This document shows, one piece after another, positions 1,217-7,487 of a DNA stretch of 13,432 bases. Positions within the stretch are counted from its first letter, which is position 1, and every line of letters begins with the position of its first letter. The DNA comes from an uncultured archaeon (GTDB lineage Archaea > Asgardarchaeota > Lokiarchaeia > Sigyniarchaeales > SOKP01). The notes beneath the pieces are model-generated. The model did not search any database. It had not been told where the DNA came from and saw only the letters and a list, made by a program, of their open reading frames with translations. Location: NCBI GenBank assembly GCA_964388035.1, contig CAYLZE010000129.1, forward strand, positions 1-13,432, written 5' to 3'. The position numbers were made by a program, and so were the translations under genes.

Positions 1217-1219
1217 GCA

Positions 1220-1260
1220 TTTATTTTATTTTTCCCTCTTTTTTTCTCAAGCATTTTTTT
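1220..1260 (+). terminator. Oligo-T tracts downstream of the FrhB-like gene, likely archaeal terminator
   Basis: Several T runs directly after the stop codon in a convergent intergenic region. Confidence 0.5.
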
Positions 1261-1321
1261 AACGAAATATAAAACCAAAGGGTATTATCGTTTCTAACTT
1301 CTTTTTATTTCACTCTTAAGC

Positions 1322-1340
1322 AAAAAAGAAATTGAAAAAA
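1322..1340 (-). terminator. Oligo-T tract downstream of the longin-like gene
   Basis: aaaaaaagaaattgaaaaaa-type A runs on + give T runs on the minus strand just after the stop at 1348-1350. Confidence 0.45.
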
Positions 1341-1347
1341 TGTTTGA

Positions 1348-1779
1348 TCAGAGATTAACCAATCCGGCGCCCCATTTTTCGGATTTAGACATTTCTTTGA
1401 ATATTTCATCAAGTTCTCCTTCATACTGTTTAAATGAAGTTACATCGCCGTCAAAATTCTCCAGTTCCAATTTAAACTTTTTAATAAATTTATCTTGGAG
1501 GATTTCAATCCTTTTTTTAATTTTATTATCTGAAGTATTAATGGTTGCTTTAACCACGAAAATCAATTCATTTTCGGTAAAAAATAAAAATTTTACCCCT
1601 TTGCTTTCTATCTTCTGAAGAGTGGAAGCCATTACTTCTTTAGAAACAGTTAATATACCGGTAAGTAACCCTCCTAATAGCTGTTCAAAGGCATCCTCAT
1701 TTTTCGAAGTATCATTTCCCTTAATGCGGTGATAAAGACAAATTCCCGACTTATCAATTATCCAGAATTCTTCAATCAT
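1348..1779 (-). CDS. Longin-like domain protein (143 aa)
   Basis: MIEEFWIIDKSGICLYHR...LLGGLLTGILTVSKEV...LQKIES...FLFFTENELIFVVKA...KKRIEILQDKF fits the beta-beta-alpha-beta-beta-beta-alpha-alpha longin pattern (sybindin/AP-sigma-like). ATG at 1779 preceded by purine-rich GGAAGCAAGGAA is preferred over TTG at 1800. Confidence 0.72.
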   Translation of the reverse strand: MIEEFWIIDKSGICLYHRIKGNDTSKNEDAFEQLLGGLLTGILTVSKEVMASTLQKIESKGVKFLFFTENELIFVVKATINTSDNKIKKRIEILQDKFIKKFKLELENFDGDVTSFKQYEGELDEIFKEMSKSEKWGAGLVNL

Positions 1780-1800
1780 TTCCTTGCTTCCTACTCTCAA

Positions 1801-2103
1801 TTATACTTTTATCAGTCCTATGATAAAAAATATGAGAGCAATTAAAGCAAGTCCCTCATAAATTTCTAATATTTTATCTCCAATAATCGGGATTGCCTCG
1901 AATCCAGAATGATTTAGAATTCCTGCTAACCCCCCATATAACCCTGATATAGCCAAACATGTAAAGGCTGCAAAGAAAAATAATGCAAGTCTATTCTGAG
2001 TTGATTTATATTTTTTTATAGTGGTATACGCTAATATCATATATATTATTCCATACCCTAATTCTACCCCATATTCTAATATATCCGCCATATCTAATGC
2101 CAT
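1801..2103 (-). CDS. Small 3-TM membrane protein (paralog B)
   Basis: Three hydrophobic segments with a basic loop KKYKSTQNR after TM1. Its start overlaps the upstream stop (TAATG). Confidence 0.8.
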   Translation of the reverse strand: MALDMADILEYGVELGYGIIYMILAYTTIKKYKSTQNRLALFFFAAFTCLAISGLYGGLAGILNHSGFEAIPIIGDKILEIYEGLALIALIFFIIGLIKV

Positions 2104-2417
2104 TATTCTGTGCCCCTTGGTTTTTTAATTAGTCTCAATCCATAAAAAAAGAAAAAAGCTGCCAGAAATTGTGTAGATTCTATTATAGCTTCCAAATAAG
2201 CGGAATCAATTAAAAAACTATTCTCAAAGGGAGAAATTATAATTCTTAGCAAAATCGAAAGGCCAATAATGCCAAATGCTATTGAAATAAATAGTAAAAT
2301 CTTATTTTGCATTCTTCTATAAGATATCATGGTGTATGTTGATAGAAAAAAAAATCCAATGATACTGATGATCTGAATTGCTAGAATTACACCCGCAGTA
2401 GTTAAATACACTGACAT
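2103..2417 (-). CDS. Small 3-TM membrane protein (paralog A)
   Basis: Three hydrophobic segments with a basic loop SYRRMQNK after TM1. Aligns by eye with 1801..2103. Confidence 0.8.
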   Translation of the reverse strand: MSVYLTTAGVILAIQIISIIGFFFLSTYTMISYRRMQNKILLFISIAFGIIGLSILLRIIISPFENSFLIDSAYLEAIIESTQFLAAFFFFYGLRLIKKPRGTE

Positions 2418-2474
2418 CTGTTAAACACTCATTTTTAAACTATTCTTCTTATTATTGATTTTATTAATCTGCAA

Positions 2475-2489
2475 TATTTAAAGTTATTC
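2475..2489 (-). promoter_or_regulatory. Putative BRE/TATA promoter for the 3TM-3TM-longin unit
   Basis: Minus strand reads GAATAAC-TTTAAATA about 58 nt upstream of the ATG at 2417. The AT-rich background limits specificity. Confidence 0.35.
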
Positions 2490-2534
2490 CATTAAAACCA
2501 TAAAAAGGCGGTCCTGATAAATAAAAGAAACTTT

Positions 2535-3740
2535 CTATTTCAGTGAAGCATCCAAATGCAATAATAAATCAATTATAAATTGATTGAATTTTGCCAACAT
2601 TTTAGGTGAAAAATTTCGAACATTATCTCGATCTGAATGAATGGGAGCATTAGAAAAAAAGACTATAAATTCATATCCAAAAGACTTTAAAGGAGCATGA
2701 TCTGTTGAGTAATGGATCAATGGTGGAATCCAAAAGGGTTTAATTTCATAAAAATCACTCTCTTTATTCTTTAAAACTGATTCTATTTCCTTTTCAATAA
2801 TTGGAGAAAATTTTCTCTTTGGTAATAATCCTTGGGAATGGGCATAAAGATTTGATAGTTTATTTGCTCCTACTGTATCAAATATTAAAAAGAAAGTATT
2901 ATTCTTGTCATAATCTTTAAAATGGCTTTTAATGAAACTATCTGCCCCGAAATCACCCCATTCCTCAGCCCCCGTCAGAACAATTGTTAAATTTATTCTC
3001 TCCAAAGGATCATTTTTAAAAGAGTGCAATACATTCAAAGCGGCAGCTACTCCCGTGGCATTGTCCGCTGTTCCGAAAGATTTATTGTGGCGTTTATTAA
3101 AAAGCTGAATACAATAAAAAGTTGCAAGGAAGAATCCATAATAAAATTGATAATAGAAATTTATCGGTATTACATTTAACAATGATAAGATTATCACGAT
3201 CATGTTATGAAGTGAAAAGAAAGTGCCACCAACCAATCCAAATAAGTATATTGCCCCATCGAACAAAGGATGTAATTCATGACTCATCGAATCATAGTGG
3301 GCTAAAATTACTAAATTCCTCACTTGTTGTGGATTTCTTTCACGAGGGGGAATAGTAAGAATATAATTAAATGATGTTCTCTCTTTTCCAATTCTGGTAA
3401 AAGTAAATTGGATTTTCTCTCTTATGGTTCTGCCAAAATATGATAAAATCAAAAGAAGAACGCTAAAACAAATGCTTAAAACGCTTAATCTATAAATATC
3501 AAAAACAATTATTAAAATAATTAGGATTCCAAGAAATGGATCATAAATTCTTAACAAGATATTCATGAAAAAAGATGTATACATGAATGCTTCTTTTTTA
3601 AAATCAAGAAAACCAAGAGAAGTTAATTCTGATTCAAGTATTTCTTGAACTTTAGTTTCCCCATCTGTTCCTGCTAAGCGAGGAAATGATATTTTTTCTA
3701 CAAAATCTTTAGAAAAGTAATCTTTTGAATAATTAAACAT
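2535..3740 (-). CDS. Membrane-embedded M28-family zinc metallopeptidase
   Basis: PRLAGT, AHYDS, GTADNATG, GAEEWG, FDTVG, STDH and IHSDRDN motifs, with two hydrophobic hairpins inserted. ATG at 3740 (MFNYS; 8-nt overlap with the GTPase stop) is preferred over TTG at 3776. Confidence 0.88.
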   Translation of the reverse strand: MFNYSKDYFSKDFVEKISFPRLAGTDGETKVQEILESELTSLGFLDFKKEAFMYTSFFMNILLRIYDPFLGILIILIIVFDIYRLSVLSICFSVLLLILSYFGRTIREKIQFTFTRIGKERTSFNYILTIPPRERNPQQVRNLVILAHYDSMSHELHPLFDGAIYLFGLVGGTFFSLHNMIVIILSLLNVIPINFYYQFYYGFFLATFYCIQLFNKRHNKSFGTADNATGVAAALNVLHSFKNDPLERINLTIVLTGAEEWGDFGADSFIKSHFKDYDKNNTFFLIFDTVGANKLSNLYAHSQGLLPKRKFSPIIEKEIESVLKNKESDFYEIKPFWIPPLIHYSTDHAPLKSFGYEFIVFFSNAPIHSDRDNVRNFSPKMLAKFNQFIIDLLLHLDASLK

Positions 3741-4269
3741 TCTTTTTTTCGATGATTTCCCTTGCGAGCGTTTCAAAAATTATATGGTTATTATATCCTG
3801 ATTTGCTACTAGTTTCTATCAAATGCGTGATGCTATGTTTTGCTTGAAATTCCTTAGCTTTTTCAATGCTTACTACCCGCTTTTCATCTGCCAGATCGAG
3901 TTTTTCTCCAATTAACATGTAAACAGGCTCGGTAGAATTATCATTTACAATGTGATACCATTCCTCTAAGTGTTCATAACTAGAATATCGGGTAATATCA
4001 TAGCATATTAATGCTCCCATTGCCCCTCGGGCATAATTCGGTAAGAAAAATCTAAAACGCGCTTCACCTGCAAAATCCCATAATTGAAGGTATACCTCAT
4101 ATATACTATTTCCTTTTTCAATTTCAATGGCATAAGTGGCCAGATCCGTCCCAATTGTCATTTTCTGAGGTAGATAATTGCCCGTGATCAATCTTTGTAT
4201 CATTGTGGTCTTTCCAACGCCACCATCACCCACAACTACGATTTTGAACAAGAATTTCTTCCGAATCAT
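3733..4269 (-). CDS. Rab-like small GTPase (Ras superfamily)
   Basis: G1 GDGGVGKT, G2 MTIGTD, G3 LQLWDFAG, Rab-like RFRFFLPNYARGAMGALICYDIT, G4 GEKLD, G5 ETSSK. No C-terminal Cys motif. Confidence 0.93.
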   Translation of the reverse strand: MIRKKFLFKIVVVGDGGVGKTTMIQRLITGNYLPQKMTIGTDLATYAIEIEKGNSIYEVYLQLWDFAGEARFRFFLPNYARGAMGALICYDITRYSSYEHLEEWYHIVNDNSTEPVYMLIGEKLDLADEKRVVSIEKAKEFQAKHSITHLIETSSKSGYNNHIIFETLAREIIEKKNV

Positions 4270-4332
4270 TTGAGCTTTTAATTCCCCGAAGTAAATTTTT
4301 TTATAAATATTATATATTAATTCTAATTAAGT

Positions 4333-5223
4333 TTATTCTATTGTTAAAATTTGTTTAAATTTTTTATTTATTGAAATAATATTCTGTTTTATATGGACTT
4401 GTAGGTTTTTCGGTAAACTAGATAAAATCGAGTTAAATTTTTCCTTATCAATGTTTATTATATCTTTATAAATTAATAAAAAACTACTGCAATCAAAAAT
4501 TGGGGGCACCAAGAGGATTAGTATAATTAAATATGATAATCCTAAACCCTTAGAATTTAGCAATCCTGTACCAGGATAGTTCAATATAAAACCTACAAGA
4601 AGATTCTGGTTATTGAGATAAACTAGAATAATATTGAAGATATTAGCACTAAAAAAAATAACAAATCCCCCAATGCTGATTAATTTTAACGTTTTGAGCT
4701 TAAAATTGCCAATTATTTGTTGTAATCCCGATTGAGAGGACTTTCTATCAAAGAGGTATAAATCACTTTTCTCTTCTGGAAGGATAATTTGTATTTTACC
4801 ATACTTCCAAATATCTATAAAAATCCAAAAGAAACTGAGCGTATATATAAAGATAAAAATGATAATAAAATAATTCGAGTAATCTGCTATCAATTGCGGG
4901 TGATATAAGCTTTCTGCTCCAATCCAGAATAATAAAATTTGGTTAAATAATGACGCAAAAAAAAATCGATTCGCGTGTCTCTTTTCCACGCCCAACGGAC
5001 TATAAATTATTAAATCTTCAGAAAACTTAATTCTCCATTTAATAATACTCAATATCTTAAAAAAAAGATAATAACCGAAAGTAATGAGTGGAAAAATAAA
5101 TAGAAATATGTTATCCCAATATTGCGAGACGGTTAAAATGAACAAAAAAAAAAACAATATCAACTCTCTCATGAGGCTTTCCGATAGGAGTTTTCTCCAA
5201 CTTAATTTTTCTTGGTCATTCAT
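4333..5223 (-). CDS. Hypothetical polytopic membrane protein (about 6 TM)
   Basis: 296-aa ORF with about six hydrophobic segments in three pairs. No family motif recognised. Confidence 0.75.
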   Translation of the reverse strand: MNDQEKLSWRKLLSESLMRELILFFFLFILTVSQYWDNIFLFIFPLITFGYYLFFKILSIIKWRIKFSEDLIIYSPLGVEKRHANRFFFASLFNQILLFWIGAESLYHPQLIADYSNYFIIIFIFIYTLSFFWIFIDIWKYGKIQIILPEEKSDLYLFDRKSSQSGLQQIIGNFKLKTLKLISIGGFVIFFSANIFNIILVYLNNQNLLVGFILNYPGTGLLNSKGLGLSYLIILILLVPPIFDCSSFLLIYKDIINIDKEKFNSILSSLPKNLQVHIKQNIISINKKFKQILTIE

Positions 5224-5507
5224 CTTTTATAAATTTCTCACCACTATAAATGATATAAGAGGAATCTTATTTTTGTGTTATTTAATTTAATATCTATGAA
5301 TTTAACATTTTAAACCTTCCTCTCCTATATTTGAGAAGCGGGATAAATATTTAACTCTCAACTCAATTTAGGATTTATGAATAATTTAAGATTATCTGTT
5401 TAACATGCTAATTTTATTGCCTTTTAAATCTTTTAGTAATTAGCTAAATTTTAAGTCTCTTTGAATATATAAACAAGATATTATTTATTATCAATATTAA
5501 AATAAGT

Positions 5508-5512
5508 GGTGG
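5508..5512 (+). promoter_or_regulatory. Putative Shine-Dalgarno GGTGG before the proposed ATA start of the helicase
   Basis: GGTGG, then 7 nt, then an in-frame ATA at 5520. Confidence 0.4.
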
Positions 5513-5519
5513 CTTTTAC

Positions 5520-7487
5520 ATAAATTATCTTAATTTTTTTCCGTATAATCAATTCAGATCTTCCCAAGAAAGTATAATAAAGCAAATAGAAGAAAGTGTA
5601 CAACAAAAAAAAATTATTTTATTAAGCGCTCCTAATGGTACGGGAAAAACAATTATAGCGTTAAGTGGGGTTCTGCCATATATCATTGAAAATGATTTAA
5701 AAGTCATCTATCTTTGTAGAACCCATTCCCAAAATACCCGAGTAATAAGGGAATTAGAAATGATCTCGAATTTTTTACGAGAGAAGGGACTTTCCATAAA
5801 GGTCAATGGGCTTTCGATTAGAGGACGTGGAGAAATGTGTCTTAATGAAACTTTATTGTCAGTTAACCCCAATCCTAAAGATGCGATGTCATTATGTACG
5901 GATTTACGAAAAAATAAGAATTGCATTCACTTTTTAAATTTGTTAAAAAAAAGGGATGAATTAGAGAATCCCGTGCTCATTGATCCGGACATTTTTAATA
6001 AACCAGTAGATGCGGAAGCATTAATTAAATTGTGCAAGGATAAAAAGTTATGCCCTTATTTTCTCAGTAAATTTCTCCTCAAAGAAATGAGTATAATTAT
6101 GTGCAATTATCAATGGATATACAATCCCTTTATTAGAGATTCATTTTTAAAATTTATCGGGAAAGAGTTAGAGGAATGTGTTTTAATCATCGATGAGTGC
6201 CATAATATCATTGATGTGGCCACCGAAGTGAATTCTTTGAGAATTACCCCATATCTTTTAAAACTATGTATAAAGGATCTTGATATGCATAATTCGCCCC
6301 AATTACTGAAAAATTTTGTAAACCTTCTACTTAATCGTCTAGAAGAGAGGAGAGGAAAGATGAAAGAAGAAGAAAGATCCATAAATCCTAGGAAATTATT
6401 AAAAAGGATATGCGAGGGCTTAAAATTAGAAGATTTAGCTAAATTAAAACTCCTATTAAAAGATTTATTAGATTATAGTCTCTCCCTCCACGAAGAAAAA
6501 ATAGCAAATGGGGAAATCTATCGAGATTATCTGGGAACTTTAGCGGAATTCTGGCTGAAATGGATAGAAACGTGTGATTTAGATTCTTACTTTTTTTGCT
6601 ATACCTTGCAGGAAAAGAACGACAGAAAATCAGTCGCTCTTGAAATCGTAGCTTTAGATCCGAGAGAAATTTCCATTCCCATTCTTAGAAATTGTTACAC
6701 GTGTTTAAATCTTTCCGGAACCGTGAATCCCTATGTATATAATAATCTCATGGGATTGAATAAATGCGGGAAAAGTTATAAAGGTATTATTGCGGAATCT
6801 CCTTTTCAAAAGAAAAATGTTAAAGCTCTAATTGTAGAAGGTGTTAGTACTAGAAGAGAAGACCGAAATCCAATAATGTATAGAAAATTAATAGATAAAA
6901 TCGAAGAGGTCATTGCGTGCACTCCAGCAAACATTGGAATATTTTGTGCATCATATAAGATACTTCAAGCACTACTTTCTTCTGGTTTAGATAATAGAGT
7001 TATAAAATATGATAAGAAATTGTTCGTGGAGGAGCCAAATTTATCTGCAAGTGAGAATTCTGCCATGATAGAAGATTTCAAATCCATGGGAAACCCAAAA
7101 TATGGCGGTGCGGTATTATTAGGAGTATGTGGGGGAAGAAATTCAGAAGGAGAGGATTATCCCGGAAATTCCATGAATTCTGTAATTATATGCGGATTTC
7201 CATATCATCTCCCCACGCCACGGATAAAAGCGAAAATAGAATATTATGATAAGGTTTTCGAAAAACAAGGATGGAATTTTGCTTACCTTTACCCCGCCAT
7301 TCAAAGAGCTAATCAAGCTTCGGGACGTCCTATTCGAAAAATAGATGATAAGGGTGCAATCATCTTTATGGATGAACGGTTTAAAGATAAATATAATTGG
7401 ATTTCAGAATGGGTCAGGACCGAGATTGAACTGATATCCAATAAAGATAACTCGATCTATCAATCATTATACCCTTTTTGGCATTAA
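5520..7487 (+). CDS. xpd: XPD/Rad3/DinG-family Fe-S ATP-dependent 5'-3' DNA helicase (about 655 aa; start uncertain)
   Basis: The frame is open upstream of ATG 5760 and encodes the Q motif FPYNQFRSSQ, Walker A APNGTGKT and motif Ia RTHSQ. Downstream are four candidate Fe-S Cys (MCLN, SLCT, KNCI, LCPY), IIDECHN, LSGT, GRNSEGEDYPG, GFPY and QASGRPIR. Confidence 0.9.
   Translation: MNYLNFFPYNQFRSSQESIIKQIEESVQQKKIILLSAPNGTGKTIIALSGVLPYIIENDLKVIYLCRTHSQNTRVIRELEMISNFLREKGLSIKVNGLSIRGRGEMCLNETLLSVNPNPKDAMSLCTDLRKNKNCIHFLNLLKKRDELENPVLIDPDIFNKPVDAEALIKLCKDKKLCPYFLSKFLLKEMSIIMCNYQWIYNPFIRDSFLKFIGKELEECVLIIDECHNIIDVATEVNSLRITPYLLKLCIKDLDMHNSPQLLKNFVNLLLNRLEERRGKMKEEERSINPRKLLKRICEGLKLEDLAKLKLLLKDLLDYSLSLHEEKIANGEIYRDYLGTLAEFWLKWIETCDLDSYFFCYTLQEKNDRKSVALEIVALDPREISIPILRNCYTCLNLSGTVNPYVYNNLMGLNKCGKSYKGIIAESPFQKKNVKALIVEGVSTRREDRNPIMYRKLIDKIEEVIACTPANIGIFCASYKILQALLSSGLDNRVIKYDKKLFVEEPNLSASENSAMIEDFKSMGNPKYGGAVLLGVCGGRNSEGEDYPGNSMNSVIICGFPYHLPTPRIKAKIEYYDKVFEKQGWNFAYLYPAIQRANQASGRPIRKIDDKGAIIFMDERFKDKYNWISEWVRTEIELISNKDNSIYQSLYPFWH

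Follow-up and report, generated by a model that had tools for sequence, protein, structure and literature searches.

The window analysed here is a stretch of 13,432 nucleotides (nt) from an uncultured Asgard archaeon (assembly GCA_964388035.1, contig CAYLZE010000129.1), and the feature under study is a segment at positions 1348-5223 that holds six open reading frames (ORFs), all co-directional on the minus strand. Read from the 5′ end, they encode a six-helix membrane protein of 296 amino acids (aa) termed TM6 (4333-5223), a Rab-like small GTPase of 178 aa (3733-4269), a membrane-embedded M28 metallo-aminopeptidase (2535-3740 with an ATG start, 401 aa, or 2535-3776 with a TTG start), the small membrane proteins TM3a (2103-2417, 104 aa) and TM3b (1801-2103, 100 aa), and a longin-fold protein (1348-1779 with an ATG start, 143 aa, or 1348-1800 with a TTG start). 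The TM6 and GTPase genes are 63 nt apart, the GTPase and M28 genes overlap by 8 nt (3733-3740) if the latter begins at its ATG, TM3a and TM3b share 1 nt (ATAATG at 2103), and 21 nt separate TM3b from the ATG of the longin gene. The only larger spacing is a 117-nt gap on the same strand (2418-2534), with T runs directly after the M28 stop codon and then two TATA-like boxes, TTTAAATA and TTTAAAAA, in front of TM3a. The GC content is uniform over the region (0.28-0.33). An initial annotation of this DNA had described six co-directional genes with these junctions and this gap, all of which are borne out by the ORF coordinates and the sequence, and had read them as a single module. Based on the comparison of loci presented below, we think it probable that the 3.9-kb stretch is instead a composite of three separately inherited units, and that the last of these, the TM3a-TM3b-longin cassette, is a split membrane-anchored longin platform.

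The first unit is formed by TM6 and the GTPase. Here and below, counts across loci and genomes are drawn from related genomes and are not independent. Among 39 other TM6 loci, a conserved block that takes in the whole window is found, in which the genes for a glycosyltransferase, an MFS protein, (an enoyl-CoA hydratase) and an XPD-like helicase lie on one side of the TM6 and GTPase genes and an FrhB-like gene on the other, with TM6 and the XPD-like gene as divergent partners. A GTPase orthologue adjoins TM6 in 30 of the 32 family loci that could be assessed; one more locus is cut by a contig end, and in two loci of a single genus the GTPase is missing. The GTPase gene lies on the opposite strand in five loci, all of one genus. 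TM6 itself is single-copy and lineage-specific: within the family 129 of 134 genomes have it, in three sister families 12 of 19 do, and none outside these families was found to have it among the 400 phylum genomes searched. The sister families keep the divergent XPD-TM6 pair, and none of their five assessable loci has any GTPase near TM6, so the adjacency of TM6 and GTPase is largely inherited synteny. This first unit is best read, from gene order, as a core pair of TM6 and GTPase that lies between the XPD-like and FrhB-like genes across this family of the Asgard archaea (Promethearchaeota).

The M28 gene makes up the second unit, and is best read as an accessory gene that appears translationally coupled to the GTPase gene. 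An orthologue is found in only 7 of 135 family genomes, and all six others sit at the TM6/GTPase locus, in the order TM6-GTPase-M28 in three genomes (G001, G005, G174) and M28-TM6-GTPase in three more (G024, G183, G187). In G024, where M28 precedes TM6, the spacers are 27 nt and 46 nt, and the 8-nt overlap between GTPase and M28 genes recurs in the ORF coordinates of G001 and G005. The retention of M28 in the operon despite a rearrangement hints more strongly than anything else that the peptidase acts together with TM6, the GTPase or both. Among the loci of 16 M28 paralogues, no Ras-like match was found within 1.5 kb.

G001 and G005 have no cassette at this locus, and their FrhB-like gene comes directly after M28. 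At the site in G001 that corresponds to the cassette of the window lies a 313-bp element (L026, 2701-3013) with perfect terminal inverted repeats of 23 nt, resembling a miniature inverted-repeat transposable element (MITE) or the end of an insertion sequence; since this element occupies the equivalent position, the site between M28 and the FrhB-like gene evidently accepts insertions. The element has 51 matches in G001, which include copies, fragments and repeat ends matching each other and often lie at contig ends, and none in the window genome. Around the cassette itself we saw no convincing flanking repeats or target duplications, and the intergenic flanks in the window showed no similarity to the M28/FrhB spacer of G001.

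The cassette was defined as two paralogous genes for small membrane proteins (3TM genes), followed by a longin gene whose product carries an ...EKWGxG[LI]xx[LI] tail. In this form it is present in the window genome and in four others (G024, G182, G185, G186), and a genome of another family (G163) has a variant with a single chimeric 3TM gene. Longin orthologues (E ≤ 1e-22) were detected in 7 of 400 phylum genomes, the window genome included. In five of the six others, four of one genus and G163, the 3TM gene or genes lie directly 5′ of the longin gene, which upholds the tie between longin and 3TM pair that had been drawn from the window alone. The flanks of the cassette loci share only the triad or little more, save in two closely related genomes, and the triad moves intact among at least four genomic settings. 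TM3a, TM3b and longin orthologues are absent from all 39 other TM6 loci. In each of the four genomes named above, the GTPase orthologue sits beside TM6 and the cassette lies on a different contig, while G163 has no GTPase orthologue at all (best match 38% identity).

The comparison of gene neighbourhoods across Asgard genomes thus reveals that the GTPase and the 3TM-3TM-longin unit share no conserved synteny, the first of the findings that the initial annotation had itself named as speaking against its proposal, and the reading of the six genes as one module, with this longin as the regulator of this GTPase, is not supported. The third unit is best read as a self-contained, rare and mobile TM3a-TM3b-longin cassette, and the gap at 2418-2534 as a boundary between two units of transcription and evolution that would give the cassette its own promoter-like region. 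This agrees with a caveat of the same annotation, which had allowed for two transcription units.

The longin protein was modelled with AlphaFold2 (AF2) from 23 sequences, giving a mean predicted local distance difference test score (pLDDT) of 80.2 and a predicted template modelling score (pTM) of 0.76. The order of elements in the model is strand-strand-helix-strand-strand-strand-helix-helix (strands 2-9 and 14-19, helix 29-50, strands 56-59, 62-69 and 72-79, helix 84-101, and further C-terminal helices), and the N-terminal helix that characterizes roadblock proteins is absent. A Foldseek search returned longin domains of Mon1/Ccz1 and BLOC-3 at ranks 1 to 6 (E 3e-6 to 2e-5), the best being the Mon1/Ccz1 chain 5ldd_D (E 3e-6), with 5ldd_A also among them; TRAPP chains (2j3t_C, 3cue_A) and AP sigma follow after BLOC-3, and roadblock/MglB chains rank below the longin domains. 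The 143-aa protein is, as judged from its predicted topology and these matches, a longin at the level of the superfamily, as the initial annotation had it. Its score against PF19036 (Fuz_longin_1), 24.4 bits, lies under the gathering cut-off of 26.1, and the protein is for that reason filed under the fold and not under the Pfam family; two relatives with 54-55% identity bear a precomputed PF19036 label. The C-terminal tail, ...SEKWGAGLVNL (residues 132-143, nt 1351-1386), is specific to the family, and within the 10102 ORFs of the window genome the motif occurs in the cassette longin alone.

In TM3a as in TM3b, two segments exceed a Kyte-Doolittle mean of 1.6, and a third is weaker and acid-capped. 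Of the three transmembrane segments first proposed for each protein, two are therefore clear and the third is plausible rather than proven. The two proteins are paralogues (hhalign of alignment A2 against A3, probability 96.7%, E 4.3e-10), and by tblastn TM3a adjoins TM3b wherever TM3b is whole (L086-L092, L094, L095); at L096 the counterpart of TM3a is an upstream ORF with 22% identity. TM3b is the best-conserved gene of the cassette. Its identity is 71-73% in four genomes that belong to another genus and 56-59% in three that are labelled Thorarchaeota, and besides the window genome ten of the 400 have strong matches to it, making the 3TM pair the most widely kept element. The TM3b family as a whole is very rare: only four cluster representatives of ~100 aa matched it at E ≤ 1e-10 among 1.84 billion, and the long hits in that search are partial matches to several hydrophobic stretches. 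A scan of metagenome contigs with the TM3b alignment confirmed no relative, and a scan of genome contigs returned the known loci and one weak partial match. TM6, TM3a and TM3b were assigned to no family in Pfam or NCBIfam. A resemblance of TM3b to DUF5985 or DUF7521 was considered and rejected, as the Atlas leads stayed below 0.9 and the Pfam scores far below the cut-off. The single 3TM gene of G163 (L119, 7575-7850, minus strand), directly 5′ of the longin orthologue, encodes 91 aa of which the start resembles residues 1-33 of TM3a and the rest residues 38-99 of TM3b, as in a fusion by deletion.

A second context of the 3TM pair is provided by the Thorarchaeota-labelled loci. In all three, TM3a and TM3b are followed by a co-directional gene for a Ras-family GTPase of 165-183 aa (Pfam Ras, 84 bits). 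The next gene is convergent and encodes a protein of 300-320 aa, whose last ~50 residues resemble the C-terminal helices and tail of the longin (...SEWGKGILDL compared with ...SEKWGAGLVNL; hhalign 65%, E 6e-5). Because the tail thus accompanies the 3TM pair in proteins of two different kinds, we propose it as a docking element, a suggestion that we make tentatively and regard as falling well short of an even chance. The 300-320-aa protein (L113, 5612-6514, plus strand; L114, 6566-7513, plus strand; L115, 1282-2244, minus strand) has an N-terminal Cys/His cluster that looks like a zinc ribbon by eye, belongs to no Pfam family and is otherwise unrelated to the longin. The GTPase of these loci was examined as a possible orthologue of that in the window and rejected as such, its best matches in the window genome being other paralogues.

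Iterated hidden Markov model (HMM) searches were run over the 10102 ORFs of the window genome. They returned 90 ORFs of the GTPase family and 57 of the longin family, with six fusions of the two among them. A GTPase lies within 2.5 kb of 6 of the 57 longin-family ORFs, compared with 4.4 ± 2.0 for random ORFs; with so many genes of both kinds in the genome, the 1.9-kb spacing of longin and GTPase in the window is at the level of chance. Fusion to domains with at least two hydrophobic segments is seen in 14 of the 57 longin-family ORFs; in most of these an N-terminal domain of ~235 aa with five to seven segments precedes a C-terminal longin. A co-directional gene for a membrane protein lies within 150 nt of 14 of the 57, compared with 5.9 ± 2.4 at random. 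The C-terminal domains of the fusions are true relatives of the longin family of the window (hhalign 99.2%, E 1.7e-19, 121 columns), and a profile from alignment A1 alone matches 10 of 12 fusion domains at E ≤ 1e-4. In one subfamily of longins with such a polytopic domain (7TM-longins), a small GTPase lies within 1.5 kb in 10 of 30 loci across the order, over a background of ~5%, although the genomes are related and this figure overstates the independence of the loci.

One of these ten loci is in the window genome itself (G000:C1:72483-75383, minus strand), with the GTPase gene 73 nt downstream on C1. The same coordinates are an example of tandem genes for ~370-aa proteins with a membrane domain of 5-7 segments and a C-terminal longin, further examples being C50:9831-14512 and C101:18-2273 (all on the minus strand). 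In addition, the genome has five split pairs in which a stand-alone longin gene accompanies a co-directional gene for a membrane protein of 111-256 aa without Pfam family (G000:C14:48148-49394, C41:39574-40747, C25:19541-20833, C80:7991-9012 and C26:42802-43553). Two longin-family ORFs of 190 aa that lie 2.5 kb apart on another contig (G000:C119:713-1285 and 3195-3767, minus strand) have identical scores, an apparent recent duplication.

The GTPase next to TM6 belongs to the Ras superfamily with a high score (Pfam Ras, 127.3 bits; cut-off 21.6), and all 60 PDB matches listed are Rab, Ypt or Sec4 chains, with Rab11 the best (E 1.7e-30). Its P-loop, switch-I Thr, DxxG motif, the Lys and Asp of G4 and the SSK of G5 are kept. 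In all 33 sequences of the orthogroup, however, the catalytic Gln is replaced with Glu (DFAGE) and the Asn of NKxD with Glu, Cys, Gln, Gly or Ser, and owing to these two replacements we call the protein Rab-like and not a canonical Rab. A C-terminal Cys for geranylgeranylation is found in none of the 33 sequences, in agreement with the unprenylated state that had been assumed for it. For TM6, the AF2 model shows six long helices (pLDDT 78.6). No significant fold match was found for it: the best Foldseek hit has an E-value of 0.19, a VIA Z-score of 9.6 to designed helical proteins is within the noise stated for helical bundles, and the Atlas holds only unnamed clusters. Kinship with G protein-coupled receptors was rejected, since matches at E 0.19-1 and a TM-score of ~0.3 are not evidence for it.

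The peptidase matches PF04389 (Peptidase_M28) with 60.6 bits (cut-off 21.3), and H148, D150, D226, E259, E260, D288 and H368 are invariant in 21 sequences. We take H148, D226, E260, D288 and H368 to form the co-catalytic metal site and E259 to be the catalytic Glu, and on this pattern the enzyme looks catalytically competent. A profile search of the PDB returned YwaD of Bacillus subtilis (6hc6, E 7e-26) in three pieces that are broken at hydrophobic inserts. These inserts (residues 57-106 and 166-199) are each of hairpin length and bordered by Lys/Arg towards the catalytic domain, which by the positive-inside rule probably lies on the cytoplasmic side; orientation and role of the peptidase are both matters that we infer. 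Compared with YwaD and the leucyl aminopeptidases of Aeromonas and Vibrio, the window protein has the same catalytic domain with metal ligands and catalytic Glu kept. The solved relatives, in contrast, are soluble or secreted. One hydrophobic hairpin of the window protein is situated at the site of the long insert of YwaD, and the second between HxD and the bridging Asp; unlike that of YwaD, its gene appears translationally coupled to a GTPase gene. For an M28 peptidase, a hairpin that separates the first His ligand from the bridging Asp is unusual. Membrane-embedded M28 proteins form a large paralogous family, with 22 ORFs in this genome by iterated HMM search and matches in 38 of 41 related genomes.

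Of the neighbouring features, the space 3′ of the cassette (1217-1347, minus strand) contains oligo-T runs that resemble a terminator, and is followed by the convergent FrhB-like ORF (275-1216), which has an FrhB_FdhB_C domain. Beyond TM6, the frame of the XPD-like ORF (5760-7487) is open for 104 codons 5′ of its first ATG (5448-5759, plus strand), and the Walker-A motif of the helicase lies within this extension, at nt 5637-5651. Because 5448-5759 has no ATG, GTG or TTG, only ATT, ATA, ATC and CTG codons, the XPD-like gene has a probable non-canonical start codon.

From these observations we propose a model for the cassette. TM3a and TM3b would form a heterodimer in the membrane, and this dimer would dock the longin, probably through its conserved C-terminal tail. 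The result would be a membrane-fixed longin platform, the split equivalent of the fusions between polytopic domains and longins, of which this genome has many. This platform would most likely bind and regulate one of the ~90 small GTPases, by nucleotide exchange or by GTPase activation, and would so place an unlipidated GTPase at the membrane. For a physical complex of the three proteins we see a slightly better than even chance, whereas action on any GTPase appears somewhat less probable than its opposite. The neighbouring GTPase is a candidate target only, and quite an unlikely one. The broader idea that membrane-bound longins work with small GTPases receives indirect support from the other loci.

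Several observations weigh against this model, in addition to the relatedness of the genomes noted above. The membrane domains of other longins show no detectable kinship with TM3a, TM3b or TM6, the best comparison (A3 with three proteins of ~250 aa) reaching 28.9% at E 6e-4, and since the membrane domains of the fusions are unrelated to TM3a/TM3b, the fusion argument is an analogy and not a true Rosetta stone. No fusion of TM3b was found among longer proteins. In one genome that is 94% complete (G018), a tailed longin orthologue is present and no 3TM gene was found, and conversely the 3TM pair occurs without a tail-bearing or longin neighbour at two f16 and five f21 loci. The similarity of the tail to the end of the 300-320-aa protein is only modest. 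For the peptidase, the tie to the TM6/GTPase locus could reflect one ancestral insertion followed by losses. Finally, because the window genome is the only one in which the cassette lies 117 nt downstream of the GTPase operon, a local functional link between the two may exist.

A link of this kind is the one originally proposed, in which all six genes form one membrane-sensing switch, the 3TM pair recruiting the longin, the longin regulating the adjacent GTPase and the peptidase serving as input or output. The genes are indeed co-directional and close, the top structural matches of the longin (Mon1-Ccz1 and TRAPP) are GTPase platforms, a GTPase without its catalytic Gln may need a partner, and the 3TM pair stands beside a Ras-like GTPase in three other loci. 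Yet that Ras-like GTPase is not the orthologue of the one in the window, ~130 genomes have the GTPase without the cassette and one cassette-bearing genome has no GTPase orthologue, and the cassette is both missing from all 39 other TM6/GTPase loci and unlinked to the GTPase in all four other genomes that have the two. With 90 GTPase ORFs, moreover, the proximity of 1.9 kb is what chance would give, and a gap with promoter-like and terminator-like features divides the units. We consider the single switch improbable. That the juxtaposition is a mere artefact, a chimeric join of metagenome contigs between M28 and the cassette, would fit with its being found in the window genome only and with a contamination estimate of 7.26% for the genome bin. 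A chimera would need two joins, however, as genes of the conserved block flank the cassette on either side (M28 upstream, the FrhB-like gene downstream); the GC content is even, and of the words sampled from 1348-5223, 84% are found in one DNA run and 75% in another, a measure of word content and not of contiguity. This explanation we regard as very improbable indeed.

A more serious alternative accepts the cassette as a unit and dissociates it from GTPases. The longin would then serve a small membrane complex, for instance a channel or a transporter, as a subunit for regulation, assembly or ligand sensing, a role that other members of the wider longin/roadblock/PAS-GAF-like fold class can have. 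No GTPase is adjacent in six of the nine loci in which a tail-bearing protein stands beside the 3TM pair, and 20 of the 30 7TM-longin loci lack one within 1.5 kb. The accessible part of PMC4917890 cautions that longin-like folds alone are no sign of a role in trafficking, and in strain MK-D1 the GTPase genes generally lie outside operons with longin or roadblock genes, according to what is available of PMC10933270. On the other hand, the top structural matches of the longin are GTPase-binding longin domains, 6 of the 57 longin-family members of the window genome are fused to GTPase domains, GTPases near 7TM-longin genes exceed the background several-fold, and a GTPase directly follows the 3TM pair in the Thorarchaeota-labelled loci. 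We judge a cassette unrelated to GTPases to be unlikely, and retain as our preferred reading the composite of three units with a membrane-anchored longin platform.

Among known systems, the eukaryotic Rab guanine nucleotide exchange factors (GEFs) Mon1-Ccz1 and the TRAPP core (Bet5/Trs23) come closest in structure. They share the fold and are the top structural matches of the window longin, and its sub-threshold Pfam match is to the first longin domain of Fuz/Mon1/HPS1. By this analogy, GEF activity is a candidate function of the longin. Mon1-Ccz1 and TRAPP are, however, soluble, form heterodimers or multisubunit complexes and depend on lipids or partner proteins for their recruitment, whereas the cassette has a single longin gene and two integral membrane proteins, with no second longin and no TRAPPC3-like gene. 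A pairing of roadblock-class proteins with Ras-like GTPases is known in prokaryotes from MglA-MglB and from the actinobacterial conservons (CvnA-D), and in conservons the roadblock/GTPase pair comes with a membrane sensor. Those are conserved operons, in contrast to the unconserved adjacency of longin and GTPase in the window, where neither the 39 other loci nor the four genomes with the two on different contigs showed an adjacency of the MglA/MglB or conservon type. Furthermore, the cassette encodes a longin fold without the roadblock N-terminal helix, and has no sensor kinase or DUF742-type gene. In concept, without any claim of homology, the arrangement resembles the Ragulator-Rag system, in which a membrane anchor holds a platform of the roadblock/longin class that places unlipidated GTPases (PMC10933270, in the part available). 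In Ragulator, however, the anchor LAMTOR1 is a lipidated extended protein and not a polytopic pair, the platform subunits are roadblock proteins and not longins, and the Rag GTPases have C-terminal roadblock domains of their own.

The longins and GTPases of the window genome belong to the same expanded families as the longin/roadblock-GTPase fusions and stand-alone longins of Lokiarchaeum and MK-D1. Lokiarchaeum has 41 longin-like domains and ~100 small GTPases, some of them fused, as given in the available parts of PMC4917890 and PMC10933270, and the latter also treats structures of longin, roadblock and GTPase proteins in Asgard archaea. Its statement on the gene order of MK-D1 agrees with the chance-level spacing observed here. 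Longins paired with or fused to polytopic membrane domains are not described in the available parts of these two papers, the available part of PMC12962969 does not mention longins, and we found no title or abstract describing membrane-anchored longins of Asgard archaea or Lokiarchaeota in a literature of which the subscription titles were covered in part.

The small GTPases of Asgard archaea have no lipid anchors of the eukaryotic type, as far as the accessible text of PMC4917890 states, and they also come without eukaryotic prenyltransferases. The same source asks whether the analysis of operons might reveal the targets of these GTPases. The present locus gives no conserved GTPase-longin operon, and in a genome with ~90 GTPase and ~57 longin genes, proximity within a few kilobases is no evidence of partnership. 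What it does offer is a testable idea for the membrane side, namely that longins are fixed there by small membrane proteins or by fusion to a polytopic domain. TM3a/TM3b and the tailed longin might then be a minimal split GTPase-regulating platform, part of a wider Asgard strategy of longins fused to or placed beside polytopic proteins that would recruit Rab-like GTPases without lipid anchors to membranes, as a prokaryotic counterpart to anchored platforms such as Ragulator and Mon1-Ccz1; in this full form the proposal is speculative, and we hold it to be rather doubtful. If it were true, membrane-anchored platforms for GTPase regulators would predate eukaryotes, and the cassette would represent a three-protein system small enough for reconstitution.

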